Shown piece after piece: positions 8,031 through 55,720 of a stretch of DNA of 64,000 nt. Positions within the stretch are counted from its first letter, which is position 1, and each line of letters begins with the position of its first letter. Source of the stretch: Candidatus Saccharimonadota bacterium (GTDB taxonomy: Bacteria > Patescibacteriota > Saccharimonadia > Saccharimonadales > JAXHNE01); contig JAXHNE010000007.1 of assembly GCA_034520885.1 (NCBI GenBank), forward strand, positions 118,827 to 182,826. The letters are read 5' to 3'. A program made the position numbers and the translations under genes. The notes below the pieces were generated by a model. It was not told the DNA's origin. It ran no database searches and was given only the letters and a program-made list of their open reading frames with translations.

Positions 8031-8074
8031 AACTCCGATTTAAATCGGAGTTAACTCGGAGTTCGGTGGTGTCG
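8031..8074 (+). repeat. palindromic 11-mer element, copy 1 (AACTCCGAtttaaaTCGGAGTTAACTCGGAGTTcggtggtgtcg)
   Basis: Read directly; shares core and 3' flank with six other copies. Confidence 0.9.
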
Positions 8075-8153
8075 TTCTTATTTAAGATGTTAAATGTCGG
8101 AGGCGGGGGTTATTTTTATTTGTCGTAGTAGTGGTGGGGGGCGGAAAAACAGG

Positions 8154-8182
8154 TTGACACAAACAAAGAAAAGTTGTAATAT
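8154..8182 (+). promoter_or_regulatory. sigma70-type promoter (TTGACA-17-TAATAT) for the 8190 cassette gene
   Basis: Consensus -35, 17-nt spacer, -10 ends 7 nt before ATG 8190. Confidence 0.6.
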
Positions 8183-8189
8183 GCAGCTT

Positions 8190-8945
8190 ATGAGTGAAGT
8201 ACTAAGAGGGCTTACTTTTACAGGTGGCGATCAAGCTGCTACAAATGCAGCCGCCGAAGCACCGTTTAGCGTAACTGAGCGCACCGACTTGGCGGTTGCG
8301 GCTTTCGGCTCTTTAGGCCAGATAGACAAGGCGCAACTGACCGAAGAAGTTGGCATGCACATGCAACAACTTCACGAAGGCCTTCACGGACAGTACGACA
8401 AAAACGACGTAGAGCCATTCATGTCGATTAACCTGTCTGATAGCTTTCCGCTTGCTGCGCTTGTGGTCGCGTTTGACAGACAGCAACAGGCAAAAACCTA
8501 CGTTTACGAACCATTTTGGAGTCAGTACAGCCCGGCGGAACTAAACAGCCGAAGTCTGGACAGTGCATCGGCACGTCAAGACATTACGGCTTCAGCCCGT
8601 GCTATGCTTACCGCCACTGATTACGAAGGTGAGTCTGGCCTGCGGTTTCCAAGCAAAAAAGGTAAAGATCAGTCCAATTTAGCTCAAGATCACGAACTAG
8701 TGAACCCAGCTGATTACATCATTCTGAATGCGCAACGACGCGAAGCCGGCGAGCCACTACTAGACACCCGAACCTTCACCCGTTTTGTGCAACTGGCTAT
8801 GAAGCCGGCTGGCGGGGCTGACGGCAGCACTTGGATTCCGGACGCGGGTTCCGGCCGCGGTCAGTTGAGCCTGCGCGGGGGGTCGTGCGACCATGCGATT
8901 CCGCACGCTGGTGTCCGTCTCTCGGTGGGGCGAAACCAGGCTTAA
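8190..8945 (+). CDS. hypothetical protein (cassette gene bracketed by palindromic elements)
   Basis: ORF 8094..8945; start moved to ATG 8190 because the consensus promoter lies inside the longer ORF; no recognisable domain. Confidence 0.5.
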   Translation: MSEVLRGLTFTGGDQAATNAAAEAPFSVTERTDLAVAAFGSLGQIDKAQLTEEVGMHMQQLHEGLHGQYDKNDVEPFMSINLSDSFPLAALVVAFDRQQQAKTYVYEPFWSQYSPAELNSRSLDSASARQDITASARAMLTATDYEGESGLRFPSKKGKDQSNLAQDHELVNPADYIILNAQRREAGEPLLDTRTFTRFVQLAMKPAGGADGSTWIPDAGSGRGQLSLRGGSCDHAIPHAGVRLSVGRNQA

Positions 8946-8996
8946 CACATTAACTTCGTACCCTCCCTCATTCCATAAAATTGTTTATTATAAAAA

Positions 8997-9053
8997 CGAA
9001 CTCCGAGTTAAATCGGAGTTAACTCGGAGTTAACTCGGAGTTCGGTAGTATTG
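8997..9053 (+). repeat. palindromic 11-mer element, copy 2 (one extra AACTCGGAGTT unit)
   Basis: cgAACTCCGAGTTAAATCGGAGTTAACTCGGAGTTAACTCGGAGTTcggtag read directly. Confidence 0.9.
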
Positions 9054-9144
9054 TTCGTTGGAGCATATTTGCTGGCGTTTTGTTCACGGATGACTTTATC
9101 GAACGGGGAAAAATACTAAGAAGCGGTGGAGGGTTAATTTTTCG

Positions 9145-10152
9145 CTAGGTTACGGATTGTGGTTGCGGATCGGATCGCAAATGATCAATGCAGGTTACAA
9201 TTTCATGCGCGAAAACGTAAGGGTCGGTAACCGGTCCGAGGTGATTGGCGTCAATAACTTTGGCGTAGTCGAACAACCCCCAAGAAGCTCTCACCGTCTC
9301 ATCCGCCGGGATTAACTGGTCACGATTGCCCAATATCGCCGCTAACTTAATATTATGTTCGCGCTTTAAGTATGCCAAATCCTGCCGATTATCACACGTT
9401 GCCGCCATGTAGCCGCGAATAACCGCCTGTGTGAGGTGTGGGAAAAAGTAATCAATTTCCGAGCGTATGGCATGGAGCGTACCTTTTTCGAATTTTAACC
9501 CGTCTTCGCGGTAAGCCGGCAATGCTTCATGGCGCAGGAACGGCCTAATTCGACCCAACATGCGCCACAAACTACGGCTATTTTCGCAGCCAACTCCTTC
9601 GACGTTGGTAATGGAAGCGACCATATCCGGTTTATGTAATGCCGTCGTGGTACTTGTGTGTAGTCCCAAGGAGTGCCCAGCAAGATCGAACTTTTCTACG
9701 TCAAGTTCCGGGTATTGGTCCGCATTGTCTTGCGTTTTGCGCATAACACCATACAGCGCTTTGCTGAGCAGAATTTCCGGATGCAGAAAATGATCTCTTC
9801 CAAAGCGTGAAGCGAACGACTGAAGCCCATACGGCTGCATGGATATCGCTGCCTTCCCGTGTTGCGCTAGTGCCGCTCGTAGCCCGTCGTATCCGAACTT
9901 CTTTGCTCCGTACCCGTTCACGATAGTCAACGGTCGTGAGTCTTCGATATTATCCGGATCGGCCGGAAACTCCAAAGTTGCCGGTACCAGGGTGCCACCA
10001 ATTTCCGCGGCAAGGTTGACTTTTTTGGTTTCCAACGAAAAACCCTCGCTGGCACGAGGGTTTATAGCTCTAAGTTGTGTTTCGTGGCCGCCGGATTCGG
10101 TGCCGACGGGCATCGGTTCGTGCGTTTCAAGATCTACTCTTTCAAGCGCCAC
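9145..10152 (-). CDS. alpha/beta hydrolase fold protein
   Basis: 335 aa; nucleophile elbow GHSLG (DLAGHSLGLH), C-terminal His region (DANHLGP). Confidence 0.7.
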   Translation of the reverse strand: MALERVDLETHEPMPVGTESGGHETQLRAINPRASEGFSLETKKVNLAAEIGGTLVPATLEFPADPDNIEDSRPLTIVNGYGAKKFGYDGLRAALAQHGKAAISMQPYGLQSFASRFGRDHFLHPEILLSKALYGVMRKTQDNADQYPELDVEKFDLAGHSLGLHTSTTTALHKPDMVASITNVEGVGCENSRSLWRMLGRIRPFLRHEALPAYREDGLKFEKGTLHAIRSEIDYFFPHLTQAVIRGYMAATCDNRQDLAYLKREHNIKLAAILGNRDQLIPADETVRASWGLFDYAKVIDANHLGPVTDPYVFAHEIVTCIDHLRSDPQPQSVT

Positions 10153-10355
10153 CTTTTATTTCCCATGTTTTACTTTGCATCTTAATGCTTATGGTACCCT
10201 CGTGTTCGGATTTTGTAAAGTTCATGAACTTACTTGGGGAAGCTCTTTCCCGCCACAACGCTTACCGGAGGCACGCTTCGTCCCCGAAAAGACCTCCGGA
10301 ATGGGTGGATAGAAACGTATCAACACCGCCACGGATGTTTGATATACTAAAAAGA

Positions 10356-10646
10356 ATGGCGAATCTGAGTAAAGACGATGTGCTAAAACTGGCGCAACTG
10401 GCCCGATTGGAGCTGAGTGACGCGGAAGTCGCGGCTTTCCAGGGAGAAATAAGTGACATTTTGGGCTACGTGGAGGCGCTGCAGTTGGTCGACGTGGACG
10501 GGCTGGAGCCTACCATTCAGGTCGGCGGGCTAAAAAATGCTACGCGTGAAGACGTCGTTAAACCGTACCAAGCCACGCCGGAGGATCTGCTAAAAATCGC
10601 GCCTTCAACCGACAAAACCTCACTAAAAGTGAAACGAGTATTATAA
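10356..10646 (+). CDS. gatC: Asp/Glu-tRNA amidotransferase subunit C
   Basis: MANLSKDDVLKLAQLARLELSDAE... typical GatC; internal ATG of ORF 10077..10646; TATACT 7 nt upstream. Confidence 0.9.
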   Translation: MANLSKDDVLKLAQLARLELSDAEVAAFQGEISDILGYVEALQLVDVDGLEPTIQVGGLKNATREDVVKPYQATPEDLLKIAPSTDKTSLKVKRVL

Positions 10647-10648
10647 TA

Positions 10649-12070
10649 ATGAGCGATTGGAAGGCGGTTGCCGACTGTGTTTTGGACGTCCAAAAACAAG
10701 TAACGTCGGCCACGGAATTGGTGCGAAAATCATTGGCCGCGATTGAGTCGGGCAAAGAATACCGGGCAATTATTTCGACCACCAAAGACCGCGCCTTAAA
10801 ACGAGCCAAAGAAATCGATGAGCGAATTGCCCAAGGCGACAAAGTTGGCAAGTTAGCCGGCGTGCCGTTCATTGCCAAGGATAATTTTTTAGTGTTCGGC
10901 GCGGAAACCACCGCGGGCAGCAATATGCTACGCGGGTTCGAGGCGCCCTACCAAGCCACCGCGATTAACCGGTTGGAAGAGCAGGGCGCGATTTGCGTGG
11001 CCAAAGCCAACCTGGACGCCTTCGCGCACGGATCGTCCACGGAAAACAGTGACTACATGACCACCAAAAACCCGCGCGATAAAACCCGCGTGCCCGGCGG
11101 CTCGTCCGGCGGTTCGGCCGCGGCGGTGATGTTGGATATGGCACCGTTCGCTTTGGGGAGCGATACCGGCGGTTCCATCCGTTTACCAGCATCGTTTACC
11201 GGTGCGGTCGGTTATAAGCCGACGCATGGAACCGTGTCGCGCAGCGGTGTGGTGGCCATGGCCAGCAGCACGGATGTGATCGGTCCGCTCACGCGCCGCG
11301 TGGAAGATGCGGCGTTGGTGCTTTCTTGCATGGCCGGAAAAGACGAACTGGACGGCACGACCATTGACAGCTCCATTACCGAAGAAGCCGAACTCACCGA
11401 CTTGAAAGGGCAGACCGTGGGCGTAGTCAAAGAATTCATGGGCGAAGGCGTGAATGACGGCGTTAAACGATCCGTACGAGCGGCGGTAGAAAAATTAAAA
11501 GACGCCGGCGTGAACGTCAAAGAAGTCAGCTTGCCTTCGCTCGACCTGGCGTTGGCTTGTTATTATGTTTTGGCACCGGCGGAAATCAGCAGTAACTTGA
11601 GCCGTTACGACGGACAGCGCTTTGAGTACAGCAGCCCGGGCGCCGCGAATTTGCACGAAAGTTACGTAAAATCCCGCAGCGAAGGATTCGGCGCGGAAGC
11701 CAAACGGCGGATCATGATCGGCACCTACGTGCTTTCCAGCGGTTACTACGATGCCTACTATCGCCGGGCGCAGCTGGTGCGCACCAAAATTATCAATGAG
11801 CTGGCCGAAACGTTCGAGGAAGTAGACTACCTGGTCGGTCCCGTCGCGCCGTCTACCGCTTTTAAGATCGGCGAAAACGCGAACGACCCGTTGCAAATGT
11901 ACTTGGCCGATATCATGACCGTTGGGCCGAGCCTGGCCGGTATCCCCGCGATTAGCCTTCCCGCGAAAGAAGCCGAGGGACTACCCGTGGGGTTGCACGT
12001 GATGGCCGCCAGGCAAAAAGATAATAAACTACTGTCGTTCGCTAAAACCATTGAGGAGGTCGTGACATGA
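10649..12070 (+). CDS. gatA: Asp/Glu-tRNA amidotransferase subunit A
   Basis: 473 aa amidase signature (GGSSGGSAAAV, GSDTGGSIR). Confidence 0.95.
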   Translation: MSDWKAVADCVLDVQKQVTSATELVRKSLAAIESGKEYRAIISTTKDRALKRAKEIDERIAQGDKVGKLAGVPFIAKDNFLVFGAETTAGSNMLRGFEAPYQATAINRLEEQGAICVAKANLDAFAHGSSTENSDYMTTKNPRDKTRVPGGSSGGSAAAVMLDMAPFALGSDTGGSIRLPASFTGAVGYKPTHGTVSRSGVVAMASSTDVIGPLTRRVEDAALVLSCMAGKDELDGTTIDSSITEEAELTDLKGQTVGVVKEFMGEGVNDGVKRSVRAAVEKLKDAGVNVKEVSLPSLDLALACYYVLAPAEISSNLSRYDGQRFEYSSPGAANLHESYVKSRSEGFGAEAKRRIMIGTYVLSSGYYDAYYRRAQLVRTKIINELAETFEEVDYLVGPVAPSTAFKIGENANDPLQMYLADIMTVGPSLAGIPAISLPAKEAEGLPVGLHVMAARQKDNKLLSFAKTIEEVVT

Positions 12071-12486
12071 CACCGGAAACCATAGTTGCCATTGCCGCCG
12101 GGAGCGTTATTGCCGTTTTCGTAGGTTTTTTGGCGTATAAAAAGTTGCCAAAGCGCCCTAAAAAGCAAAAGTACGTTGCTCGATGGCGGGAACTCCAAAG
12201 TCTTTGCAAGGACAAGTCTACCTGGCGTGACGCGGTGATTGCCGCGGACAAATTGCTGGACCGCGCGCTCAAGCAGCGAAAGTTCAAAGGGAAAACTCCC
12301 GGGGAGCGTTTGGTCTCCGCGCAAAAAAAGTTCAGCAAAAACGACCAAGTCTGGGACGCCCATAATTTGTACAAAAAACTTATCGCTAACGAAGAGCGTC
12401 AGCCCGGCGAGGAGGAAACCAAAAAAGCCCTGGCCAACTTCCGCCAAGCCCTAAGAGATCTCGGAGCCTTGCCCAGTGAAAAGTAA
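12067..12486 (+). CDS. hypothetical N-terminally anchored protein inserted between gatA and gatB
   Basis: 139 aa; ATGA overlap with gatA stop and 11-nt overlap with gatB start; one N-terminal TM helix, basic soluble tail. Confidence 0.6.
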   Translation: MTPETIVAIAAGSVIAVFVGFLAYKKLPKRPKKQKYVARWRELQSLCKDKSTWRDAVIAADKLLDRALKQRKFKGKTPGERLVSAQKKFSKNDQVWDAHNLYKKLIANEERQPGEEETKKALANFRQALRDLGALPSEK

Positions 12487-13930: not shown

Positions 13931-13991
13931 ATACGACCCTTACAATTTTTTGGGCTGTTTCGGGTGGACGGGAGATGTTACAATAAAGGGT

Positions 13992-14255
13992 ATGGACGGA
14001 GCAGAACAAATTCTCGTTATTATCTTGTCGGCCTTTTTGGCGTTATTTTTGGTTTTGGCGATCATCGCGACCTACAAGTTCATTCAGGTACTAAATTCCT
14101 TGAAACGGATTTCCGAACACGCCGAGCACATCGCCGGCAAGGCGGAAACCATTAGCGATATATTCGCCTCGACCTCCGGGCCGCTCGCGGTGGGCAAACT
14201 ACTCTCGCATTTGGCCGAAACCGTATTTAAGCATAATAAGAAGGAGAAGAAGTAA
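13992..14255 (+). CDS. small membrane protein
   Basis: ORF 13950..14255; ATG 13992 lies 7 nt after TACAAT (13979-13984); one TM helix ILVIILSAFLALFLVLAIIA. Confidence 0.45.
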   Translation: MDGAEQILVIILSAFLALFLVLAIIATYKFIQVLNSLKRISEHAEHIAGKAETISDIFASTSGPLAVGKLLSHLAETVFKHNKKEKK

Positions 14256-14689
14256 TGGGAAAAAATTCCGGAAAATGGGCAATAGGAACCGTAGTAGCCG
14301 CTGCCGCGGGGTACGTAGGTGGCATACTGACCGCGCCGAAAAGCGGTAAGGAAACCCGCAAAGATATTAAAGATTCGGCCGCCAAAGCCAAGGCGGAAGC
14401 CGAAAAACGGCTCAAGGCCGCTCAGAAGGAATTAATTGAGTTAACCGATAAGGCCAAAGTCCAAAAAAGCAAGGTAAAAGCGCGCACCAAAACCGAGATT
14501 GAAAACGCCGTCAGCAAGGCGCAGACCGCCAAGAAGAAAGCCAGCGAAATGTTGAGCGCCGCGCATGAGGGCGAAGCCGATGACAAGGATTTGCAAAAGG
14601 CCATCGACGACGCCAATAAAGCCAGTGAACACCTAAAGAAATTTCTTTCCGATGCTCAAAAAGCCAACGATAAGTCCGGGAAAAAATAA
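14255..14689 (+). CDS. YtxH domain-containing protein
   Basis: N-terminal GxxxG-rich helix followed by APKSGKETRKDIKD and a long Lys/Ala/Glu helix, typical of YtxH. Confidence 0.75.
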   Translation: MGKNSGKWAIGTVVAAAAGYVGGILTAPKSGKETRKDIKDSAAKAKAEAEKRLKAAQKELIELTDKAKVQKSKVKARTKTEIENAVSKAQTAKKKASEMLSAAHEGEADDKDLQKAIDDANKASEHLKKFLSDAQKANDKSGKK

Positions 14690-14921
14690 CCAAAAAGACA
14701 TCGAGCGCGTCGGCCGGTTGCTCGGTTTCGTGTACGAAAGCAATTTCGTTAGCCGCTCGCGAATGTTGCGGCTCAGTTTTCTTCGTGGATTCCTGAGTGG
14801 TATCGGTGGGTTTTTCGGCGCGACACTCGGCGCCGGTATATTGTTGTGGGTGGCTTCACTATTGTTGGATGTGCCGCTAGTGGGATCGCTTATCGAAATG
14901 TTCCGCGACGTGTCGCGTTAG
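14652..14921 (+). CDS. small membrane protein (DUF5665-like)
   Basis: FLRGFLSGIGGFFGATLGAGILLW hydrophobic hairpin; start uncertain (overlaps the previous gene). Confidence 0.5.
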   Translation: MLKKPTISPGKNNQKDIERVGRLLGFVYESNFVSRSRMLRLSFLRGFLSGIGGFFGATLGAGILLWVASLLLDVPLVGSLIEMFRDVSR

Positions 14922-25631: not shown

Positions 25632-25689
25632 GTATGTTTCGGCGCAAAGCTTCGCCTTTGCTTTCCCGACTATCATTTTGGTTCGGCAA
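25632..25689 (+). repeat. ~58-bp direct repeat, copy 1
   Basis: gtatgtttcggcgcaaagcttcgcctttgctttcccgactatcattttggttcggcaa; contains a GCAAAG/CTTTGC hairpin. Confidence 0.85.
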
Positions 25690-25753: not shown

Positions 25754-25814
25754 GTATGTTTTTTCGGAGCAAAGCTTCGCTTTTGCTTTCCCGACTATCT
25801 TTTTGGTTCGGCAA
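25754..25814 (+). repeat. ~58-bp direct repeat, copy 2
   Basis: gtatgttttttcggagcaaagcttcgcttttgctttcccgactatctttttggttcggcaa; near-identical to copy 1. Confidence 0.85.
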
Positions 25815-46372: not shown

Positions 46373-46498
46373 AATTTTGCCCGAAAACAGGGTAAAATAC
46401 GCTTCGTTCCTCACCCACATGCCGGAGTGGTAGAGTTGCCTGTCCTCCGAAGCCTCGGCGAAGGAGGGGTAGACATTTACCGGTAGTAAATTTTTGAT

Positions 46499-46583: not shown

Positions 46584-46649
46584 AAACTTGACTACGGGAC
46601 ACGCTAGTCCAAAACCGTAAAAACCTTAAGATTCAAATCGCACTTTGAA

Positions 46650-46700
46650 CCGAACTCCGAGTTAAATCGGAGTTAACTCGGAGTTATGGTATGGTGTCGG
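46650..46700 (+). repeat. palindromic 11-mer element, copy 3
   Basis: ccgAACTCCGAGTTAAATCGGAGTTAACTCGGAGTTatggtatggtgtcgg, 67 nt after the tRNA-Leu. Confidence 0.9.
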
Positions 46701-46795
46701 TTTTTTGTTGGATAGTTTGCACAAAATTCAGGAGTGAAGGGGAATTCTCAGTATACGAACTAAAACAAGGGTCAGCATGTTAAAATACGGTTAAT

Positions 46796-49700
46796 ATGGC
46801 AAATTTGTTTGGTAAAAACAGGCTGAGTGAAAAAGCAGCCGAGATTAATACGGATGAGATTATCGATTTTATCGAGATCGTCAAAACATGGCACGCTGAT
46901 TGCCATGACGGTTCGCTCAAGAATGATAAAGAAACTTCTCGGGAACAGGAATACAATCAGTCCTTTTTCAAAAACATTCTCGGCTACAAAGAAAAACCAA
47001 CAGTCCCGTATAACTTTGAGCCAAAGGCGACAACAAAAACGGGCCACTTGCCAGATGCGGTCATCAGTTATACGGACAAGTCCAATGACATAGAAAATAT
47101 AGCTGCCGTTGTTGAGCTAAAAGGTGCATCGGTTGATCTAGATCGTCCGCAGCGTCGCGAGGGCAATATGAGCCCCGTACAGCAAGGTTTCAAATACAAA
47201 ACGCTATACCGTAACTGTCCATTCGTAGTCGTTAGTAACTTTTGGGAGTTTCGCTTGTATCACGACAACTTGCTCGACTACGAAGTCTGGACACTGGACG
47301 ATCTCGTTAACCCCGATGACGACTACATTCTGTTTAAAACTTGGTACACGCTACTAAAACGAGAAAATTTTACTGCCAAAAAAGGTGCCAGCAAGACAGA
47401 AGACCTACTGAGTGATATCCGCATTGAGCAGGAAGAAATAGGAAAAGATTTCTATAAAGTCTACAAAAAAGCAAGGCTTAGCTTACTCAGAGACATTATT
47501 GAGCAAAACCAAGTCAAACGAGGCGAAATAGACCTGGCTATAGAAAAAACGCAAAAAATCATTGATCGCATTGTTTTTGCTTGTTTTGCCGAAGACAGAG
47601 GATTGTTCCCGGATGATACTTTGCGCAGAGTTATAAAATCAGCGGATGAATCCGACTTTGATAGCTCGCTATGGTTTACGTTCAAGGCATTTTTTGAATC
47701 CGTTAATAGCGGTAGCGAGAAGTTAGGGATAGCGGACGGTTACAACGGCGGCCTGTTCGCACATGACGCAGAGCTAAATAACCTGAAGGTTGGCGATCGT
47801 CCTTTGCGCCAAATCGCAGAGCTTGGTGGGTACAATTTTGTTGAAGACCTGAGCGTTACCATTCTTGGTCATATTTTCGAACAGTCCATCAGTGACCTCG
47901 AAGAGATTAAAAACAAAGTCAATGAAAAACAAGGTCTAGACGCAATTCAGCAAAGTAGGCGCAAAAAAGACGGCATTTTCTACACGCCTGACTATATTGT
48001 CCGTTACATTGTCGACAACTCACTAGGGGCGTATCTACGTGAAGCAGAGGAACGGCTTAAAGACGAGTTCAGGCTTCACGGCGACATTAATGAAAAAAAT
48101 TATGAAAAACGCGAACGTCAAGCTTACGGTAAATACCAGGATTTCCTGCAAAACGTTAAAGTGTTAGATCCGGCGTGTGGTTCGGGCGCGTTCCTCGTGT
48201 ATGTGTTTGACTACCTGCTTGCAGAGAACAAGCGTGTGGCGAGCATTCTTGGCAATAGCCTGTTTAGCAGTGAAGATTATATAAAAGATATTTTACGCAA
48301 CAACATTTATGGCGTAGACCTTAATGAAGAATCAGTAGAGATAACTAAACTCTCACTATGGCTAAAATCCGCCCAAAAAGGTAAAAAACTTACCTCGTTG
48401 GACGACAACATAAAATGCGGTAACAGCCTTATAGACGACCCAGAAATCGCAAGCGACAAAGCTTTTGACTGGCAAAAAGAGTTTCCTAGTATTTTCGCAG
48501 ACGGCGGTTTTGATGTCGTTGTCGGGAATCCACCTTGGGTTTCACTAGGTGGAAAGCACGGTCAAAAAGTAAGTGACGATGAACTTAAATACTATATTGA
48601 GAAATACAACGGCAACACATACATGCCCAATCTGTTTGAATACTTCATAAATCTTGGCATCAATCTTTTGAGTACAGACGGTTATTTTGCGATGATTGTG
48701 CCAGATCGTTTTGGGATAAACGGTGTGTTTAACAAGTTACGTAAGCAAATATGGCAAAAGCATACCCTTGTTGAAGTCGTGTACAAGTGGGATTTTCCGT
48801 TTATCGTTACAGATACCATGACTTTTGTCATTAAAAAGCAAGTTGCGAACAAGCAAAAGGTGGCGATCAAGGCAAATCCAAAATCAGACTCAATATTCCT
48901 TACAAATAGCGAGATAGATGAAGATAGTTATGGGTTTAAGGCATTCAAATCAAAGCAGTCCAAAAAGCTTATTGATAAAATATTGGATGGCGGAGTTTCG
49001 TTATCGGAGGTTGCAAAAACCACTTCTGGTTTTGGTGGAAGATCAAAACTTATAACCATCAAAAGAGTGTCTCCAGAACAGAGAGAGATCTTGAAGGGTC
49101 AATCAATAGGACGTTATTTAGTCAAAGATAGGCTATATTTTGAATTTACTGACGAGAATGTAACCGGTAGAACGAGAGATGAAAATAAGTTAAGCGCAAG
49201 ACCAAAAGTACTACTCAGAAAAACTGGCTCGGAAATCATTGCCAGTTTCGACGACACTGGCGCATATCCAGAACAATCCCTTTACTTCCTATACTCATTT
49301 GCTGATAAAGTGCAGCCACTTTATATCTTGGCACTACTTAACTCAAGGTTAATAACTTGGCTTTTTAGAAATAACTACATAACTAACGCGGATAGTACTC
49401 CACAGCTAAAAAACATTGATTTAGATAAGTTTCCCATAGTAATTGCGGACAATAAAACGCAAGCGCAAATAGCAGAATTGGCGTCTGGCATAGTCGAAAA
49501 ATCAAAAACTTTGTACACGAACTCACAAAAACTAAATAGATTAGTGTCTGTGGAATTTTCTTTTGATAAGTTACCAGCCAAACTCAACAGATGGTGGACG
49601 CTTGACTTCGCAGACTTTGCAAATGCCTTAAAAGTTAAACTTTCGCTCCAGCAAAAAGACGAGCTTCTGCAACTCTTTGAAAAATACCGCACAGAATGTG

Positions 49701-49810
49701 CCGAACTCGACGCCCAAATCCAAAAAACCAATAACGAAATCGATCAACTAGTGTACAAACTTTACAACCTTACCCCCAAAGAGATACAGATTGTTGAAAC
49801 TGGAGCTTAA
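46796..49810 (+). CDS. type IIG/IIL restriction-modification enzyme (fused PD-ExK nuclease, N6-adenine methyltransferase and specificity domain; MmeI/Eco57I-like)
   Basis: 1004 aa; N-terminal LPDAV...VVELKG (PD-(D/E)xK), SAM motif VLDPACGSGAFLV, catalytic VVGNPPWV, C-terminal TaqI-like specificity region (LLNSRLITWLFRN). Confidence 0.85.
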   Translation: MANLFGKNRLSEKAAEINTDEIIDFIEIVKTWHADCHDGSLKNDKETSREQEYNQSFFKNILGYKEKPTVPYNFEPKATTKTGHLPDAVISYTDKSNDIENIAAVVELKGASVDLDRPQRREGNMSPVQQGFKYKTLYRNCPFVVVSNFWEFRLYHDNLLDYEVWTLDDLVNPDDDYILFKTWYTLLKRENFTAKKGASKTEDLLSDIRIEQEEIGKDFYKVYKKARLSLLRDIIEQNQVKRGEIDLAIEKTQKIIDRIVFACFAEDRGLFPDDTLRRVIKSADESDFDSSLWFTFKAFFESVNSGSEKLGIADGYNGGLFAHDAELNNLKVGDRPLRQIAELGGYNFVEDLSVTILGHIFEQSISDLEEIKNKVNEKQGLDAIQQSRRKKDGIFYTPDYIVRYIVDNSLGAYLREAEERLKDEFRLHGDINEKNYEKRERQAYGKYQDFLQNVKVLDPACGSGAFLVYVFDYLLAENKRVASILGNSLFSSEDYIKDILRNNIYGVDLNEESVEITKLSLWLKSAQKGKKLTSLDDNIKCGNSLIDDPEIASDKAFDWQKEFPSIFADGGFDVVVGNPPWVSLGGKHGQKVSDDELKYYIEKYNGNTYMPNLFEYFINLGINLLSTDGYFAMIVPDRFGINGVFNKLRKQIWQKHTLVEVVYKWDFPFIVTDTMTFVIKKQVANKQKVAIKANPKSDSIFLTNSEIDEDSYGFKAFKSKQSKKLIDKILDGGVSLSEVAKTTSGFGGRSKLITIKRVSPEQREILKGQSIGRYLVKDRLYFEFTDENVTGRTRDENKLSARPKVLLRKTGSEIIASFDDTGAYPEQSLYFLYSFADKVQPLYILALLNSRLITWLFRNNYITNADSTPQLKNIDLDKFPIVIADNKTQAQIAELASGIVEKSKTLYTNSQKLNRLVSVEFSFDKLPAKLNRWWTLDFADFANALKVKLSLQQKDELLQLFEKYRTECAELDAQIQKTNNEIDQLVYKLYNLTPKEIQIVETGA

Positions 49811-50661
49811 TGGACGGCTTATTTAACCATAGAGAGATAGCCGTAGGGCTGTGGTTAGCAGTACTTATAGTCTTTGCTGCTAGTAAAAAGGTAGTGCGCT
49901 CATCGTTTGTAGATGTTCTTAAAGCATTCTTCATGCCAAAAATAATCATACCGCTGTTACTGTCATTTGCGCCTATCTTGCTGGTAGTGTGGCTGTTGGC
50001 ATACTTCAATCTTTGGGACTTATCTGTACTTAAAGAGACAATCTACTGGGTTATTGGTACGGGAATAATAATGTTCGGTAAGTTTAATGATGTTAAAAAT
50101 GTAAAGACACTATACAAACAGACAGCAAAAGAAACTCTAGCGTTAGTGGTCTTGCTGGAGTTCGTTATTTGGCTTTACGTATTTCCTTTATGGGCTGAGT
50201 TGATATTAGTGCCGTTTGTAACCTTAATAGTACTACTGGCGACAGTTGCAAAGTATATGAAAACAGACGGTATAGGATTAACACGCAAAGTGCTAAATGG
50301 TATGCAAATATTCATTGGTCTACTTATACTACTATTCGCATTCATCGGCTTTACGAAAAACCCTGCATTGTTATTCACCTTTCAAAACCTAGAACTATTC
50401 TTATTGCCTATAATTTTGTCGTTGACCTACGCGCCGTCAGTGTACCTCATAGCGTTATACAGCAAGTATGAGTTGGTATTTAATCGCATCAATCACTATA
50501 TTTCGCCAGAAATCAAAGATAAACGGTCTATCAAGTTAGCTTGTATTAGACGCTGCGGTTTAAGCTTGCGCACAACTAGTGATATGACACGACACTTAGC
50601 GATTAACTTAACTAACGAGACAACAACCCCACAAGCCCTTAAATTGGTTCGTGATTTTTGA
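49810..50661 (+). CDS. hypothetical polytopic (~7 TM) membrane protein coupled to the RM gene
   Basis: 283 aa; start overlaps the RM stop (TAATG); same AT-rich composition; no known domain. Confidence 0.6.
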   Translation: MDGLFNHREIAVGLWLAVLIVFAASKKVVRSSFVDVLKAFFMPKIIIPLLLSFAPILLVVWLLAYFNLWDLSVLKETIYWVIGTGIIMFGKFNDVKNVKTLYKQTAKETLALVVLLEFVIWLYVFPLWAELILVPFVTLIVLLATVAKYMKTDGIGLTRKVLNGMQIFIGLLILLFAFIGFTKNPALLFTFQNLELFLLPIILSLTYAPSVYLIALYSKYELVFNRINHYISPEIKDKRSIKLACIRRCGLSLRTTSDMTRHLAINLTNETTTPQALKLVRDF

Positions 50662-50776
50662 CCCGAAACAAAAAGAAGCTTTGCTCGACACTAGCGCGTA
50701 GTGCGGCGCCTTTGCCATACCAGCGAAGCTCCAACACTTTTGTCTTTTATGACAGGCGAACCTTAAAAAACACATA

Positions 50777-50979
50777 GCTGAACCTTCAGGCGATAAAAGA
50801 AAAACTGCCCGGCTCAGACCAGTAAAAACATTAATTTACCAGCTTCTTCACCGAACTCCGAGTTAAATCGGAGTTAACTCGGAGTTCGGTGTCGTGTACG
50901 GATTTTCTTTAGTTGGTTTGCGCGAAAGTACAGAGTAGGGCGGGGTACCGCAATCCGGGGTTTAAAGCTCGCTACAATT
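50777..50979 (+). repeat. ~203-bp junction module L1 (contains palindromic element copy 4 at 50849-50891 and ends in TACAAT)
   Basis: Aligns along its whole length with 52831-53033, with scattered substitutions and one 1-nt indel. Confidence 0.9.
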
Positions 50980-51137
50980 ACCAAAAGCGGAGTCTAATAT
51001 AGTATGGGCGGATGCACTCATTTGACATTCGATCAGGACGGGTCTATTCTTACGGAAGGTGATATAAAATATGGGTCTTGCCCGGCAAAGTCTAAAAAAA
51101 GTCTCTCGTCAAAAAAACAACCAAAAGGGGTATCTCT

Positions 51138-52694
51138 ATGGCAAAGTCAAAAGCCAAAAGAACTAAAGCGTCACGTTCCAATAAAAAGAAAAAGCAATCA
51201 TTCGCCCAGAAATTCATGGGCCTCCCCAAAACGGTACTTTTCATTATTGCTTTTGGGCTGGTGGGAGTCGTTGGTCTTGTTATTGCAAGTGCCGGCCCGA
51301 ATTACAGTATGTCCCACAAACATTTAAATACGGAAAAATCAGTCAATGCCACAAAAGTTAAAGAAACCCGTGACAGCAAACGAAATGCAAAAGTAGTAGA
51401 AATAAAAAATAACTCAGAAGAGTCCGTTGCTAAAGCAACAATTTCACGCGACGTACCAGCAGGTACCTACGAAGTTTGTCTTATTGGTGTTGCTCAATCA
51501 GGTAGCCCAACGGGTACGTTCAGTGCGCGAGAATTTACTACCAGAACGGGTAATGATCTAGGGGTGACTACCTACACGGCAAAATCCGGAGGTGATTACG
51601 AAGAACTAGCATGTTTAAGTTTTGAGCATAAGGAAGGTGATAGCTCGCATTTGGCTCTATATGTCACTAACACGAATCCAGACACTTCGCTGAGGATAAG
51701 TGTCATCTCAGTAGAAGAGGTTGAAGGCAATGATACGGACGTGTCAATTGACGAGGAGCCAACTGATCCTCCGTCAACTGACCCCGGCGATTTGACTACC
51801 CTCTCGGGCTCACGGGCAATAAAGGCTTCATGCAATACGAAGGCACAGTACAATGGGACAAACCCACGCAATAACTTCCCAACGGATATTACGACCGGCC
51901 CGGAAGCCTCCGGCATCAACGAAGAGGCTTTACCAAGCTCAGGCCACTCCGGATCATGGACTATTTCACGAAACGGCGCAGTTGTTGACGGTGTTTTCCA
52001 TAACGGCAGTATTAATGTCAAAGCAGACAATGTAACAATAAAAAACAGTGTCATCTGCGGTAACTCAAGCATAATTGTTGACAACGATGGCAAAAACTTA
52101 CGTATTGAAAATTCAATAATTCGAGGCGAAGATAACGGTTCAGGTGACTGTGGTGCTGCTATAGCCCAAGGAAACTATAAAATGTACAACACAGAAGTAA
52201 CTTATTGTGCTGACGGTGGTAAGTTGAATGGTGTTGTCGAGATTTACAACTCATGGTTCCACGATTTTTTCACTAATCGCTACGGGAACGGAGGAGGTAC
52301 TCACAACGATACCTTACAGAAAAACAAAAACCCAAGTCTCGACCGGCTAATCGTTAAAGGCAATAGCATGTATCAAGACCCTTGTACCAGTAACCGACAC
52401 CTGCAAATGGGTGGACCGGATGAGTCAAGTCTCACGATTCCTTACTTAAGGTGGGAGGACAACTTTATGTATGGCATCAGAGGCTTCTATAAAGATGACA
52501 ACGTGCATGTAAGCGATGGTTTGATCTCTGGCAACACATTTGCAGGTAGTGCAACCAAAGGACCTTTCCCTACAGCTGGTTTATACAGCTGGGGTAATGG
52601 AACGCCAATACCGCGTAATGGAAATCTGTTCGAAAGTGGGCAAAATGCTGATGAAAATCCAAGTAGAAGTTCATATAACTGCACGAACATTTAA
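51138..52694 (+). CDS. membrane-anchored right-handed beta-helix (pectate-lyase/NosD-like repeat) surface protein
   Basis: Basic N-terminus + TM helix VLFIIAFGLVGVVGLVIA. C-terminal half has repeated N-x-(V/I)-x-I-x-N-(S/N) turns (VKADNVTIKNSVICGNSSIIVDNDGKNLRIENSIIRG). aagggg SD. Confidence 0.65.
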   Translation: MAKSKAKRTKASRSNKKKKQSFAQKFMGLPKTVLFIIAFGLVGVVGLVIASAGPNYSMSHKHLNTEKSVNATKVKETRDSKRNAKVVEIKNNSEESVAKATISRDVPAGTYEVCLIGVAQSGSPTGTFSAREFTTRTGNDLGVTTYTAKSGGDYEELACLSFEHKEGDSSHLALYVTNTNPDTSLRISVISVEEVEGNDTDVSIDEEPTDPPSTDPGDLTTLSGSRAIKASCNTKAQYNGTNPRNNFPTDITTGPEASGINEEALPSSGHSGSWTISRNGAVVDGVFHNGSINVKADNVTIKNSVICGNSSIIVDNDGKNLRIENSIIRGEDNGSGDCGAAIAQGNYKMYNTEVTYCADGGKLNGVVEIYNSWFHDFFTNRYGNGGGTHNDTLQKNKNPSLDRLIVKGNSMYQDPCTSNRHLQMGGPDESSLTIPYLRWEDNFMYGIRGFYKDDNVHVSDGLISGNTFAGSATKGPFPTAGLYSWGNGTPIPRNGNLFESGQNADENPSRSSYNCTNI

Positions 52695-52807
52695 ACTACA
52701 ATAAAGTTTTCATGAGTCGTTAATCTTGCATGGTTTACTGGGCTTAAGTAACCAAGAGTCATTAGAGATGCTTATATTGCGGCCAAAGTGCGTAAGCGTG
52801 AGTATAT

Positions 52808-52825
52808 GTTTTCCGTACGGAAAAC
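52808..52825. other. perfect 18-nt palindrome GTTTTCCGTACGGAAAAC after the beta-helix gene
   Basis: Read directly; terminator-like hairpin without a U-tract. Confidence 0.5.
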
Positions 52826-52830
52826 GCGTG

Positions 52831-53033
52831 GCTGAGCTTTCAGGCGATAAAAGAAAAACTGCCCGGCTCAGACCGGTAAAAACATCAATTTACGGACTTC
52901 TCTACGAACTCCGAGTTAAATCGGAGTTAACTCGGAGTTCGGTGTCGTGTACGGATTTTCTTTAGTTCGTTTGCGCGAAAGTGCAGAAGAGGGGCGGGGT
53001 ATTGCAATCCGGGGTTTAAAACCTGCTACAATT
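52831..53033 (+). repeat. ~203-bp junction module L2 (contains palindromic element copy 5 at 52905-52941 and ends in TACAAT)
   Basis: Direct repeat of L1; its TACAAT (53027-53032) sits 8 nt before ATG 53041. Confidence 0.9.
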
Positions 53034-53040
53034 TATGCAA

Positions 53041-53712
53041 ATGAGCGAAACACTTAGGAAAACGGAGAATCCCGAGCATTTCGATGTTCACCATGAAAAC
53101 GGTGAAGCTTTGATGTGCATGTCGAGCGAAGGCGAGTGCCGTGTCCTGGTAGAAATCATGTCGGGGTATACGCCCGAAGAACAGCAGCAGCTTACGGGCT
53201 CTACCACCGGCGCGCTTGAAGCCATTGATCGCTTTACGGACGGTAAAGCCGCGGATATTTTTACCGGTTTGCATATAAAAATTGGCGAGGACGTAACGGA
53301 AGGCGGAGCGAAAACAATCGCCGAGGAAAACCAAGTACTGCTCAGTGGTAGAAAAATGCTTTTGAGCATTGACGAAATGCGCCACGTAAGCGGAGCGTAC
53401 GGCAGCGAAGAGCTTACCGACTTTCCTGACGCACACCGACCTGGCGGCGCACTGGAATACACCCTGGTTCACGAAATAGGGCACGTTCTTGACGGCCAAA
53501 CCCAAGCCGGCGAACCGTACCACCGCGTTTCCGCCAAAGAAAGCCCTACGAAGTACGGACGCGAGTCCGACGAGTGGCACGACAATAAAAGCCACGAAAC
53601 GTTCGCGGAAGGCTTTGCGCACGCAGTTTACGACATGCCCATAAGCGAACCGCTGGAAACCGCCGTACGCGACACAATCAATACGAGGTTACAAGAAGTC
53701 ACCAAAACCTAA
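53041..53712 (+). CDS. HExxH zinc metallopeptidase-like protein (resembles the anthrax-lethal-factor / Pro-Pro-endopeptidase M34-type motif spacing)
   Basis: TLVHEIGHVLD followed ~45 aa later by HETFAEGFAHAV (third-ligand Glu context); no signal peptide; start moved from 53035 to 53041. Confidence 0.55.
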   Translation: MSETLRKTENPEHFDVHHENGEALMCMSSEGECRVLVEIMSGYTPEEQQQLTGSTTGALEAIDRFTDGKAADIFTGLHIKIGEDVTEGGAKTIAEENQVLLSGRKMLLSIDEMRHVSGAYGSEELTDFPDAHRPGGALEYTLVHEIGHVLDGQTQAGEPYHRVSAKESPTKYGRESDEWHDNKSHETFAEGFAHAVYDMPISEPLETAVRDTINTRLQEVTKT

Positions 53713-53755
53713 ACCAAATTTAAAATCTACGAGCGGAAAGAAATAACTAAAACTG

Positions 53756-54178
53756 CTAGAGTTCTTCTTTCCGCTCAGGCCACTCGTGATACGGATATAG
53801 TTCTCGTAACTTAACGGTTTTGTCGCTACTGATTATAACGTCAGCATCCAGACCATCCTCGAGTCTACTAAACATAAAGAGTCTACATGCACCGCACGGG
53901 GGCAAAACATAGACATCTTTTTGAGGATTATTATTCCAAACGGCGACAATCTTTTTTACTTTGTATTCTTTGTTAGTAAACATTTGAGCGATTGCGGTTC
54001 GTTCCGCGCAAGAGCCCACGCCAGAGCCATCGTCAACGCACGCCCCTTTGTAGATATTACCTTTGTCGGTGACTAGAGCCGACCCCACGTCGCCAATCCA
54101 GTCACCCTCAATCTCAATGGGATTAAGTACATCAACCGCTAGTTTTATCAGTTCTTTATTCGATATTTCATTATCCAT
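53756..54178 (-). CDS. cytidine / blasticidin-S deaminase-fold protein
   Basis: 140 aa; zinc motifs CAERTAI and PCGACR at the spacing typical of small tetrameric CDA/BSD enzymes. Confidence 0.8.
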   Translation of the reverse strand: MDNEISNKELIKLAVDVLNPIEIEGDWIGDVGSALVTDKGNIYKGACVDDGSGVGSCAERTAIAQMFTNKEYKVKKIVAVWNNNPQKDVYVLPPCGACRLFMFSRLEDGLDADVIISSDKTVKLRELYPYHEWPERKEEL

Positions 54179-54400
54179 ACTACAACTTTAACAGATTTAT
54201 CCATTTTACTCCGTTGTGTACGTTTCAGTAACTGCTACAGGGCAACACTCTAGGTCTTGTGAGATACCAGAGCTTAACCAAACTTAAAAGCCTACGTTAG
54301 TGAAGTCGGGCATGCTTCGGAGCCAAACCGCAGCTCTTTCTCCGTAACAGCAACCTCAAGCACTCAGGGTATATTTAGCTTTTCTTGTTATAGTAGGGAA

Positions 54401-54766
54401 GTGAACTTAAACGAAACCGATTTACGTGAACTGGAAAAGTTAGAGGAATCGCTTTGGGAGCGGAAAACGCGATTTGACAATGACTACATGAGAAGCGTTT
54501 TGGCCGATGACTTTTTGGAGTTTGGGCGTTCCGGGAAGGTTTACGACCTTGAAGAGTCGTTGTCGGCCCCCGACCAAGAAATCAAAGCAAAGCTACCTCT
54601 TAAAGACTTTTCAGTGCACCAAATTGACGAGACCGTAGCCTTGGTAACCTACGTGAGCCAAGTAGAGTATGACAGTTTAGAAGTTAGCAACCGAAGCTCT
54701 TTGTGGCAGAACACCGGCGAGGGCTGGAAACTCAAGTTTCATCAGGGCACTCCAGTAAATCCATAG
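54401..54766 (+). CDS. NTF2-like (DUF4440/SnoaL-type) protein
   Basis: 121 aa; LADDFLEFGRSGKVY...WKLKFHQGT pattern typical of DUF4440. Confidence 0.7.
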   Translation: MNLNETDLRELEKLEESLWERKTRFDNDYMRSVLADDFLEFGRSGKVYDLEESLSAPDQEIKAKLPLKDFSVHQIDETVALVTYVSQVEYDSLEVSNRSSLWQNTGEGWKLKFHQGTPVNP

Positions 54767-54831
54767 CCGTGTCTAGCTTTTGATCCCAAACAAATGACAA
54801 CTTCTCGCAGGGCATCCCCCTAAAAACAACC

Positions 54832-54870
54832 CACCGAACTCCGAGTTAAATCGGAGTTATGGCTTGTCGT
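54832..54870 (+). repeat. palindromic 11-mer element, copy 6 (short form)
   Basis: caccgAACTCCGAgttaaaTCGGAGTTatggcttgtcg, between convergent genes. Confidence 0.85.
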
Positions 54871-54896
54871 CAGGTCTGTTCGTTGGTTTTTGGGGT

Positions 54897-55583
54897 TCAG
54901 CCACTACTTAAGTGCTCGTGAATAATCTGCCAGTTGCCATCAATTCTTTGTAGAACATTAGTGCCACGACCTGTGTACACTGGTTGTTTGTTATTTACTT
55001 TGCCGTCTAAAGTAAAATCATATACGCATGCGGCGGTATCGTAGTCTCGCGCGAGCCACACAATGTTGTTTATCTTGTATATTCCATCCTGAATATTTTG
55101 GTAGATGCTCTCAAAGGCTTGCCGGATTGATTTGATACCGTGGTAGGTTCCATTCGTAAACCAAAAGACCGCGTCTTTGGCAATCATAGGGGCAACGTTC
55201 TCAAAATCACGTGAGTTGACCGCTTTCTCGTACGCTTGAAGAAGCGTGGTCAGTTCATTGTGAACCTCGGCGTCGCCGTTTGTAGTTATGGGTTCACCCT
55301 TTTTAATTGTTCGAGCGGCAACATCAGCCATTCTTTCTAAGTCCTGGTACGTATTGGCTTTATCTTCAGCGTGATTTACATAACGGCTTGGGCCTCGAAA
55401 CAAAAAGCGCTTGCCCCAAAATGAATGCACATAGGCGTGTTGGCTTTTCGGGAGCAGCTTAAAGTCTGCTTTGGTAATTTCGGTGAGCTCGTATGGCACT
55501 ACTACCTCGTCCTTTTTGAAGTCACGATTAGCTTGGACGCCTTTGCCTCGAAAACTGCCATTTCCGATACTTACGTTATCCAT
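54897..55583 (-). CDS. SET-domain / NTF2-like fusion protein
   Basis: N-terminal ~105 aa has SET features (GKGVQANRDFKKDEVVVPY, YVNHAEDKANT, IKKGEPIT); C-terminal ~115 aa is SnoaL/DUF4440-like (VFWFTNGTYHG...GNWQIIHEHLS). Confidence 0.6.
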   Translation of the reverse strand: MDNVSIGNGSFRGKGVQANRDFKKDEVVVPYELTEITKADFKLLPKSQHAYVHSFWGKRFLFRGPSRYVNHAEDKANTYQDLERMADVAARTIKKGEPITTNGDAEVHNELTTLLQAYEKAVNSRDFENVAPMIAKDAVFWFTNGTYHGIKSIRQAFESIYQNIQDGIYKINNIVWLARDYDTAACVYDFTLDGKVNNKQPVYTGRGTNVLQRIDGNWQIIHEHLSSG

Positions 55584-55676
55584 GCATAGAATTTTAACAG
55601 ATTTTACCTGTTAAAATTCTATGCTAGCGAGGCCTGGATTTATTTGAGCTGAACGAACTTTATCAAAAAGTATTGC

Positions 55677-55720
55677 ACCGAACTCCGAGTTAAATCGGAG
55701 TTATGGTATGGTGTCGGTGG
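55677..55720 (+). repeat. palindromic 11-mer element, copy 7 (short form)
   Basis: caccgAACTCCGAgttaaaTCGGAGTTatggtatggtgtcggtgg; its 3' flank is identical to copy 3. Confidence 0.85.

Follow-up and report, generated by a model that had tools for sequence, protein, structure and literature searches.

Seven copies of a palindromic repeat built from 11-mers punctuate a 64,000-nucleotide stretch of a Candidatus Saccharimonadota genome (contig JAXHNE010000007.1, positions 118,827 to 182,826; "the window" denotes this whole stretch), and the locus raises the question of which function these repeats serve and why they lie where they do. The original prediction for this DNA placed them at the junctions of accessory gene cassettes. 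It was partly right about the association with accessory DNA, and it missed that one array lies at the promoter of a small gene of the AbrB/MazE family, a linkage that recurs across lineages. From sequence patterns and from analogy with characterized family members, we consider it likely that the arrays are the binding sites, i.e., the operator, of a predicted 60-aa protein of AbrB/MazE/SpoVT fold encoded in the window. They are best read as an autoregulatory operator of the AbrB superfamily, unusual in that its palindromic boxes are conserved and phased by 11 bp, that it is spread over several lineages of metagenome-assembled genomes (MAGs) of the Candidate Phyla Radiation (CPR), and that orphan copies stand at the edges of acquired genes. 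Patescibacteria (CPR) account for a large share of bacterial diversity; their gene regulation is almost unstudied, and the analysis provides a concrete predicted regulator-operator pair. In the searchable literature we found no prior description of the arrays: the 11-mers occur solely as chance strings in unrelated papers, and no paper ties Saccharibacteria or Patescibacteria to repetitive extragenic palindromes (REP), REP-associated tyrosine transposases (RAYT), miniature inverted-repeat transposable elements (MITE) or AbrB operators.

Repeat arrays with an 11-bp period and a single dyad

The array unit is AACTC[C/G]GAGTT, 11 bp in length and present in two to four tandem copies per cluster (Table 1). 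At one mismatch or fewer and on both strands, the 11-mer AACTCCGAGTT matches the window 32 times against 0.99 matches expected, and all 32 fall within seven clusters; a degenerate two-unit 22-mer at three mismatches or fewer yields 13 matches against 0.01 expected, in the same seven clusters only. These counts, far above chance, bear out the seven same-orientation clusters of the original prediction. Its statement that the housekeeping block between 10 and 46 kb holds no copy also stands, since the degenerate 22-mer pattern at three mismatches or fewer finds none there either. All seven arrays lie on the + strand with a C-type unit first.

The repeat had been described as a unit and its reverse complement. 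The repetition as such is correct; what this description missed is that unit U (AACTCCGAGTT) and unit U' (AACTCGGAGTT) differ at the central base only, each being near-palindromic by itself, and that they follow each other with an 11-bp period. Each cluster is thus arranged in tandem, the central base switches once along it, and the cluster as a whole has one dyad. In the array at 8031-8063, a compensatory T9/A3 change makes units 1 and 2 together a perfect palindrome of 22 bp. The predicted hairpins were confirmed by folding, with minimum free energies of -23 to -39 kcal/mol and z-scores of -2.3 to -7.3; the hairpin of array 8999-9042 is the strongest in the window (-38.7 kcal/mol). As read from the sequence, the unit junction GTTAAC supplies TAA on both strands, and three to four units stop all frames. 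Rfam returned tRNA-Leu only, for the whole window at the gathering threshold and likewise for 46.4-56.1 kb at E <= 1. The array remains what the original prediction took it to be in the negative, i.e., neither a CRISPR array nor the end of an insertion sequence (IS) nor an attC site, and it is a strictly intergenic, hairpin-capable repeat.

Two of the arrays (50854 and 52907) lie at the centers of a duplicated module of ~210 nt (50767-50979 and 52821-53033, 88-94% identical), and array 46653 shares ~35 nt of upstream and ~110 nt of downstream sequence with both modules. Each module also carries, just upstream of its array, a small - strand terminator-like hairpin (CCGGTCTGAGCCGG then GCAGTTTTTC; 50807-50822 and 52861-52876).

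Conservation of the array in other genomes

A scan of species-representative genomes with the two-unit pattern gave 27 loci, which derive from at least seven Saccharibacteria MAGs, from Nomurabacteria and Paceibacterota MAGs and from two contigs binned as Bacteroidetes. In metagenomes, 17 short contigs with an array were picked up. The array is thus present in related CPR genomes, at 4-8 loci per MAG compared to seven copies in the 64-kb window. Viral contigs contained neither an exact match to the 22-mer pattern nor a relative of the regulator protein. Apart from two doubtful overlaps with open reading frames (ORFs; L010, L017), arrays are intergenic. Between species the array alone is conserved and its flanks are not, and several species carry the window's 33-mer unchanged, in one orientation or the other. 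The conserved flanks of the original prediction are accordingly genuine, yet confined to the window genome; the genome JAGQNU likewise has genome-specific flanks, shared between L008 and L026 on the one hand and L011/L012 on the other. A box that is conserved from Saccharibacteria to Nomurabacteria and Paceibacterota MAGs between unconserved flanks is what one expects of a sequence that is read by a protein.

Among 55 tabulated arrays, 46 contain both C- and G-type units, and 45 of these 46 show exactly one switch (C..CG..G or G..GC..C, the order depending on the lineage). Complete two-unit arrays are heterotypic in 13 of 15 cases. Variant units change in compensating pairs (T9 with A3), and in L001, where the outer units have diverged, the array forms a perfect 44-bp palindrome. 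The preference for a single switch together with the compensatory changes indicates that the selected feature is a single dyad over the whole array. One candidate was set aside: in the Bacteroidales-binned contig L022, a run of ten all-C 11-mers in direct orientation (RMCTCCGAKTT, 4727-4836) lies just upstream of an Fe-alcohol-dehydrogenase (Fe-ADH) gene, in a setting of ordinary Bacteroidales-type genes (Fe-ADH, cupin, NusB-type) with no AbrB-like gene nearby, and probably represents an unrelated tandem repeat.

Many contigs begin or end inside an array (L007, L009, L011, L012, L023, L031, L037-L039), and many regulator-bearing contigs are just 0.5-1.5 kb long. The perfect palindromes of the arrays seem to break short-read assemblies, which matters for the reconstruction of CPR genomes.

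Linkage of the array to a small AbrB-type regulator gene

We followed the association between array and regulator gene from both sides, i.e., (i) DNA-first, where loci were fetched by the array pattern alone and then searched locally by tblastn with the proteins of the window's accessory island, and (ii) protein-first, where homologues were collected by profile search. In the DNA-first loci, homologues of the regulator lie directly beside an array in L003, L005, L011/L012, L036, L042 and L032/L035/L037, which correspond to six independent loci, and every homologue reads away from its array. Among the island proteins the regulator alone, compared as a 63-aa MazE/AbrB-like ORF (the gene at 55765-55947 encodes 60 aa), had homologues in the fetched loci; tblastn placed no homologue of the window's cassette proteins beside an array in any fetched locus. 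A family-profile search over all six-frame fragments of the fetched loci found no member at E <= 1 away from an array, except for a distant paralogue in the Nomurabacteria MAG contig L062. The protein-first profile search returned 452 clusters, almost all of 57-63 aa, and in four of four homologue families (64, 57, 43 and 52% identity) an 11-bp-periodic array is found immediately upstream of the gene (L052, L053, L056-L061 and L062). These arrays include one whose outer units have diverged and remained self-complementary (AAAGCGGAGTT paired with AACTCCGCTTT, L052) and one with four AAATC-type units (L053). An exhaustive search of the family gave 502 representatives at E <= 1e-3 (clusters at 50% identity), nearly all of 55-65 aa and nearly all stand-alone.

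The position of the array relative to the promoter is also maintained. In eight of nine independent lineages with unrelated flanks, a -10-like hexamer TAnnnT starts 4-7 nt after the last unit, and a TG is found at -15/-14 in 6-7 of the nine; examples are cgTGcTATAAT, tgTGtTATGCT, cTGaTATACT, aTGtTAAAAT, cgTGtTAAGAT and tcagTGgTATAAT, compared to aTGgTATGGT at 55703-55712 in the window. At the gene-linked loci the regulator gene starts 35-82 nt after the array. The linkage in six DNA-first loci and in all four protein-first families, with the same spacing between array and -10 element, leads us to read the arrays as the operator of the regulator.

Two further observations concern this family. 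Loci L056-L061 from different samples encode an identical regulator protein behind either 4 or 7 upstream units (L056 9884-9927 and L057 504-580), a length polymorphism of 33 bp or three units. The distant AbrB-like paralogue of L062 (3039-3212) is devoid of an 11-mer array and is preceded by another palindrome (TAATTACGTAATTA), as if each paralogue in L062 had its own operator.

The assignment of the protein (MGARKMGEQHIRSL...) to the AbrB superfamily draws on name, profile and fold. NCBI names it AbrB/MazE/SpoVT DNA-binding protein, and each of the first eight family members (8/8) matches PF04014, with a best E-value of 3e-6. A protein-profile sequence search against the PDB gave chance hits only and was thus uninformative, so that a fold search was needed to place the regulator. 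Its AlphaFold2 model has a mean predicted local distance difference test (pLDDT) score of 84 and a beta-beta-alpha-beta-beta topology; the best PDB matches are the AbrB N-domain, both free and DNA-bound, MazE, operator-bound VapB and SpoVT (1yfb, 2k1n, 1ub4, 3zvk, 5l6l, 2w1t) with probabilities of 0.8-0.99. The root-mean-square deviation amounts to 1.3-2.6 A over ~45 residues for AbrB-N, MazE and SpoVT and to about 3 A for Rickettsia felis VapB. Foldseek E-values of these matches are weak, as expected for so small a domain. Family members consist of a single ~45-residue domain in 57-64 aa, i.e., of the DNA-binding domain with a basic N-terminal tail, and end directly after the domain. No toxin gene is conserved downstream of the homologues, whose neighbors vary (tRNA, PCMT (pcm), low-molecular-weight phosphatase, GIY-YIG and membrane genes). 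By sequence and model, the regulator is predicted to be a stand-alone DNA-binding domain, neither a classical antitoxin nor an MraZ.

Table 1 Arrays, promoter elements and genes of the window discussed in the text
Feature	Position	Strand	Remarks
Orphan array, 3 units (AACTCCGATTT AAATCGGAGTT AACTCGGAGTT)	8031..8063	+	~91 nt upstream of the -35 element of gene 8190-8945
Orphan gene, 251 aa, no Pfam family	8190..8945	+	Bracketed by arrays 8031 and 8999, between uvrB and a hydrolase gene
Orphan array, 4 units (C-G-G-G)	8999..9042	+	Between convergent genes; tail cggTAGTAT
Accessory island, tRNA-Leu to hisS	46584..57743	.	40-46% GC compared to ~52% in the core; holds 5 of the 7 arrays; missing in L049 and L050
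Orphan array, 3 units	46653..46685	+	70 nt past tRNA-Leu; first element of the low-GC island
Extended -10-like element aTGgTATGGT, same as at the regulator gene	46686..46695	+	4 nt past array 46653; followed by a diverged copy of the regulator 5' untranslated region (5'UTR), then the type IIG gene
Type IIG restriction-modification gene	46796..49810		Downstream of array 46653 and its promoter copy
Orphan array, 3 units	50854..50886	+	Hairpin reaches 50849-50891 (caccg/cggtg); center of duplicated module 50767-50979
Orphan array, 3 units	52907..52939	+	Center of duplicated module 52821-53033
Orphan array, 2 units	54837..54858	+	Between convergent genes; tail atggCTTGTC, a degenerate promoter copy
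Gene-linked array, 2 units (AACTCCGAGTT AAATCGGAGTT)	55681..55702	+	Proposed operator of the adjacent regulator gene
Extended -10 element TGgTATGGT, putative	55704..55712	+	4 nt past array 55681-55702
Regulator gene, predicted 60-aa AbrB/MazE/SpoVT-fold DNA-binding protein	55765..55947	+	Starts ~60 nt downstream of the array; ribosome-binding site AAAGGA at 55751-55756

Proposed model of an autoregulatory operator with orphan copies

In the proposed model, each 11-bp unit would represent one box; boxes would follow each other at one helical turn, so that two-fold-symmetric dimers or tetramers could bind cooperatively to one face of the duplex around the single dyad axis of the array. At the regulator gene, which has a predicted promoter of the extended -10 type, the array would span positions from approximately -17 to -40 or beyond. 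Because the array overlaps the protein's own promoter, the bound protein should shut off its own transcription, and because the six other arrays of the window are built from the same boxes, they should be bound by the same protein. A typical genome has one gene-linked array and several orphan arrays, in numbers of 1+6 in the window, 1+4 in CAVVEW, 1+7 in JAGQNU, 1+3 in JBDTES and 1+1 in JACKGR. Within the window, array 46653 and, in more diverged form, arrays 50854, 52907 and 54837 also carry copies of the promoter and 5'UTR of the regulator gene, and are thus duplicated modules of proposed operator and promoter before or between recently acquired genes. Their tails differ in how much of the promoter is retained: 46653 has the identical aTGgTATGGT behind it and then a diverged 5'UTR, 54837 keeps atgg and has lost the -10 element, 50854 and 52907 are more diverged, and 8999 continues with cggTAGTAT. 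In the window and in JAGQNU, where flanks are shared between copies, the orphan copies are therefore duplicated modules of proposed operator and promoter; the other genomes share the array alone. Decayed regulator pseudogenes behind orphan arrays were considered and rejected, as hmmsearch of six-frame fragments finds none at E <= 1.

Diverged genomes keep arrays at orthologous sites: in L014 and L043 the array lies upstream of an ABC exporter, and in L025 and L040 it lies next to a GtrA-family gene. The genes that arrays face in other genomes are often transporter or envelope genes (ABC, MFS, Na/Ca exchanger, GtrA, pilB, ftsA). Both observations favor orphan arrays as real target sites. If so, additional targets of the regulator can be read straight from genome sequence by means of AACTC[C/G]GAGTT in 11-bp phase.

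A number of points weigh against this model. The link between arrays and regulator is one of position and family analogy only, and the window protein itself scores 24.1 bits against PF04014, just below the gathering cut-off of 24.7. The single C/G switch (45/46) and the compensatory changes fit a hairpin in single-stranded nucleic acid and a symmetric protein site equally well. Orphan arrays do not avoid convergent gaps (5/22 in other genomes, 2/7 in the window), and several are located 90-330 nt from the nearest promoter or start, which counts against a regulon that acts purely at the promoter level. Furthermore, identical 33-mers at many sites and in many species cannot stem from point mutation; they call for a copying mechanism, which the operator model does not supply.

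Accessory DNA around the arrays

Two regions of the window are bracketed by arrays, and both are missing from relatives. The segment 7883-9144 is absent where uvrB adjoins the next gene: in L046 and L048 (UvrB 85-86% identical) the two genes overlap by 4 nt, and L047 has a different small gene after uvrB. No arrays are found in 22 kb of these uvrB-region loci of relatives L046-L048. The relatives L049 and L050, whose HisS is 73-79% identical, have a canonical terminator behind tRNA-Leu and then hisS (directly in L049, within ~500 bp in L050), with no island and no array. The regions are therefore accessory, in line with the original prediction. One contig of the same strain (L028, found via RsmD) ends 32 nt before tRNA-Leu, short of the island; exact look-ups with uvrB and hisS returned none.

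Among intergenic gaps of at least 95 bp, an array is present in 7 of the 11 accessory ones and in none of the 12 core ones (Fisher p = 0.0013, our own arithmetic on the gap counts of the window). The claim that arrays lie at accessory junctions only consequently holds within the window; it does not generalize, because arrays elsewhere adjoin ftsA, ABC exporter, pilB, gtrA-like and MFS genes.

The island of ~11 kb encodes the type IIG restriction-modification protein, a membrane protein, several orphan genes, a deaminase, DUF4440 and SET-SnoaL proteins and the small MazE/AbrB-like ORF. An orphan gene of 518 aa (51138-52694) is bracketed by arrays 50854-50886 and 52907-52939, and the segments between arrays vary in GC content from 39 to 53%. 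No integrase, transposase or other recombinase is found among the island proteins or beside the small cassette (8190-8945). The gene of this cassette has its own promoter, TTGACA-17-TAATAT at 8154-8182; its mRNA is apparently leaderless, as this textbook promoter (8154-8192 region) puts the transcription start at or next to the ATG. The idea that 7883-8030 had been cut off from the 3' end of the hydrolase gene downstream was rejected, since the hydrolase ORF looks complete and the relatives' genes at this position are too diverged to compare.

Alternative explanations

The arrays might be selfish REP/REPIN- or MITE-like hairpins that are copied as single strands by an enzyme acting in trans (RAYT or IS200-type Y1), with the AbrB-like gene as a mere frequent neighbor. 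Several features are those of such an element: strictly intergenic location in multiple copies, genome-specific flanks shared within the window and within JAGQNU, identical 33-mers at many loci of many species, and a hairpin-capable sequence with one dyad and compensatory changes up to the perfect 44-bp palindrome of L001. Moreover, placement looks random across convergent, tandem and divergent gaps, the number of units is polymorphic (4 versus 7) between samples with identical protein, and contigs often end in an array. Yet among 148 ORFs within 3 kb of arrays in other genomes no family is common to more than two, none of the shared ones is a transposase, the window island has neither a transposase nor an integrase, and viral contigs gave no matches. 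In the fetched loci the hallmarks are missing as well, with no GT[AG]G head and no RAYT with inverted REPs near arrays, and neither the fixed spacing between array and -10 element nor the maintenance of arrays at orthologous sites is explained. Of the REP/MITE interpretation in the original prediction, the multi-copy intergenic palindrome is confirmed; we regard the explanation as a whole as unlikely. Copying of this kind could nevertheless supply the missing mechanism of spread and in part complement the operator model. A different view takes the arrays as portable homology at which incoming DNA recombines in competent cells, either RecA-dependently or by homology-facilitated illegitimate recombination, so that acquired genes pile up between arrays beside the regulator gene. 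It would account for both array-bracketed regions being insertions relative to L046, L048, L049 and L050, for five same-orientation arrays within 9 kb up to the regulator gene with inter-array GC contents of 39-53%, for the ~210-nt direct repeats that flank the 518-aa gene and for the association with accessory gaps in the window (p = 0.0013); Saccharibacteria are described as naturally competent (PMC10633639). Against this, stretches of 22-44 bp are short for efficient recombination, arrays in other genomes are mostly solitary beside core or transporter genes, homologues of the cassette proteins are not found next to arrays in the fetched loci, and no strain pair with a difference of exactly one array-bounded segment was found, the sole same-strain contig stopping before the island. 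We judge it quite improbable that this is the function of the arrays. Portable homology and the operator model can be combined in the form of an operator that also acts as a mobile, self-similar landing pad, i.e., capture of foreign genes without integrase by recombination at arrays, the genes arriving wired to the repressor through the copied module. We give this combination little credence; if true, it would provide integrase-free cassette capture together with silencing of new genes, e.g., of the type IIG restriction enzyme. With orphan copies standing at the edges of such genes, one may ask whether the operator spreads with foreign DNA or helps to capture it.

A terminator or insulator, by which transcripts would be stopped or blocked at accessory-gene borders through RNA structure or a protein roadblock at the hairpin, is suggested by six of seven window copies lying 54-213 nt past the end of a + strand gene or tRNA, by the stability of the hairpins, by the T-rich, A-poor tails of window copies, by a weak terminator-like hairpin directly after array 54837 and by the GTTAAC junctions, which stop all frames in arrays of 3-4 units. 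The terminator scan calls none of the array hairpins, yet it calls a textbook terminator at 57685-57708. Over 46 arrays, 20 nt contain on average 6.3 T downstream and 6.2 A upstream compared to 6.5 and 5.7 of the opposite bases, i.e., there is no enrichment. Divergent promoter regions hold one of the window copies and several copies of other genomes, and the orientation relative to the upstream gene varies between genomes (reversed in L003 and L014). The bidirectional terminator of the original prediction fails in its canonical form because the hairpin has no adjacent U-tract, T and A are not enriched over the 46 arrays and canonical terminators are present elsewhere in the window; terminator and insulator functions taken together appear very unlikely. 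An integron-like attC site, at which a tyrosine recombinase inserts circular cassettes, has in its favor the same-orientation sites less than 4 kb apart that separate short gene segments, the folded palindrome as site, and the junction GTTAAAT, which fits the attC R' consensus GTTRRRY. There is no integrase or recombinase in the island or beside the small cassette, no RYYYAAC partner box and no architecture of extrahelical bases (R''/L''); the cassettes are mixed in orientation and have their own promoters, and arrays elsewhere are mostly solitary. We attach almost no weight to this possibility. DNA uptake sequences (DUS/USS) were rejected since, save for the gene-linked site, 36 kb of window core and ~150 kb of core-region loci (L046-L050, L052, L053) hold 0 copies. 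The palindrome was also considered as a CRP-like, LexA (Cheo box) or parS site, and these readings were dropped owing to misfits of spacing or sequence.

Comparison with known systems

Members of the AbrB superfamily typically autoregulate by means of repeats or palindromes in their own promoters. The operator model shares with AbrB/Abh/SpoVT, MazE, VapB and PrlF the swapped-hairpin beta-barrel fold of the N-domain, the repeated or palindromic site in the protein's own promoter and autorepression as the likely outcome. In contrast to AbrB-type antitoxins, the family of 57-64 aa has no C-terminal domain for oligomerization or toxin binding, and in contrast to the loosely defined sites of AbrB, the 11-bp box is sharply conserved across CPR phyla and operator copies are dispersed as orphans. 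A type II toxin-antitoxin system with an AbrB-type antitoxin was rejected, since no downstream toxin gene is conserved and the protein ends after its DNA-binding domain. MetJ occupies 2-5 abutting short palindromic metboxes with one dimer per box and cooperative contacts between neighbors. Abutting palindromic boxes and, as proposed here, a cooperative repressor are common to both systems, whereas MetJ has a ribbon-helix-helix fold, an 8-bp box and a restriction to the metabolic regulon.

With REP and REPIN elements the arrays share short extragenic hairpin palindromes in many, sometimes clustered copies with species-specific variants, and REPs are also bound by host proteins. They differ from the REP/RAYT system in the 11-bp tandem module, in the one copy at a fixed distance from the promoter of a gene for a DNA-binding protein and in that no RAYT was found near arrays. 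In Neisseria, a competent bacterium, the inverted repeats of dRS3 and the neisserial intergenic mosaic elements (NIME), together with minimal mobile elements, mark intergenic spots of strain-variable accessory genes that are exchanged by homologous recombination; the arrays have no sequence relation to dRS3, which is a phage and IS110 target. C proteins and their C-boxes resemble the array 46653 and its promoter copy before the type IIG gene in that a small DNA-binding protein is combined with tandem palindromic boxes before a restriction gene. C proteins are, however, helix-turn-helix proteins encoded inside the restriction-modification operon, whereas the window regulator lies 9 kb away and most arrays are not located at restriction-modification genes.

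MraZ, another member of the AbrB superfamily, binds three to four tandem boxes cooperatively (4-nt box and 6-nt spacer) upstream of the promoter of its own gene, acting as a repressor (PMC12957436). Like the arrays, its GTG(G/T) boxes are about one helical turn apart. MraZ differs by its two fused AbrB-like domains, its octamer or dodecamer rings, its place at the head of the dcw (cell-division and cell-wall) cluster and its direct-repeat boxes; the window system has near-palindromic boxes around one dyad and a gene without conserved operon. An MraZ regulon, which requires two tandem MraZ (UPF0040) domains and the dcw cluster, was accordingly rejected for a family with a single ~45-residue domain and no adjacent dcw genes.

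Additional features of the locus

Where the island meets hisS, a 1.5-kb segment with two orphan genes is bracketed by a direct repeat, TAGTAGTTAGTAGAT(G/C)GTATTTA, at 55945-55967 and 57469-57491 (also 57455-57477), and in L049 TATGTAGTTAGTAGATTTGAACC is found at ~9965-9990, right behind the tRNA-Leu terminator. The repeat may represent the duplicated att-like site of a separate insertion event. Upstream of the island, the window (46373-46498) is devoid of a gene of ~238 aa that lies between RsmD and tRNA-Leu in L049 (9102-9818, annotated as orotidine monophosphate decarboxylase) and in L050 (8334-9047, no Pfam hit). The tRNA-Leu locus of L050 (9040-9800) further contains several partial copies of tRNA-Leu interleaved with GC-rich, structured-looking inserts of 100-200 nt; ARAGORN recognizes only one intact tRNA-Leu there. 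A 250-nt gap of the core block holds a 53-nt direct repeat (25637-25689 and 25762-25814; 94% identical, 125 nt apart) without an Rfam match. On the CPR contig L058, a reverse transcriptase gene (RVT_1) and a bAvd-like gene (73-1354) lie next to trigger factor and resemble a diversity-generating retroelement.

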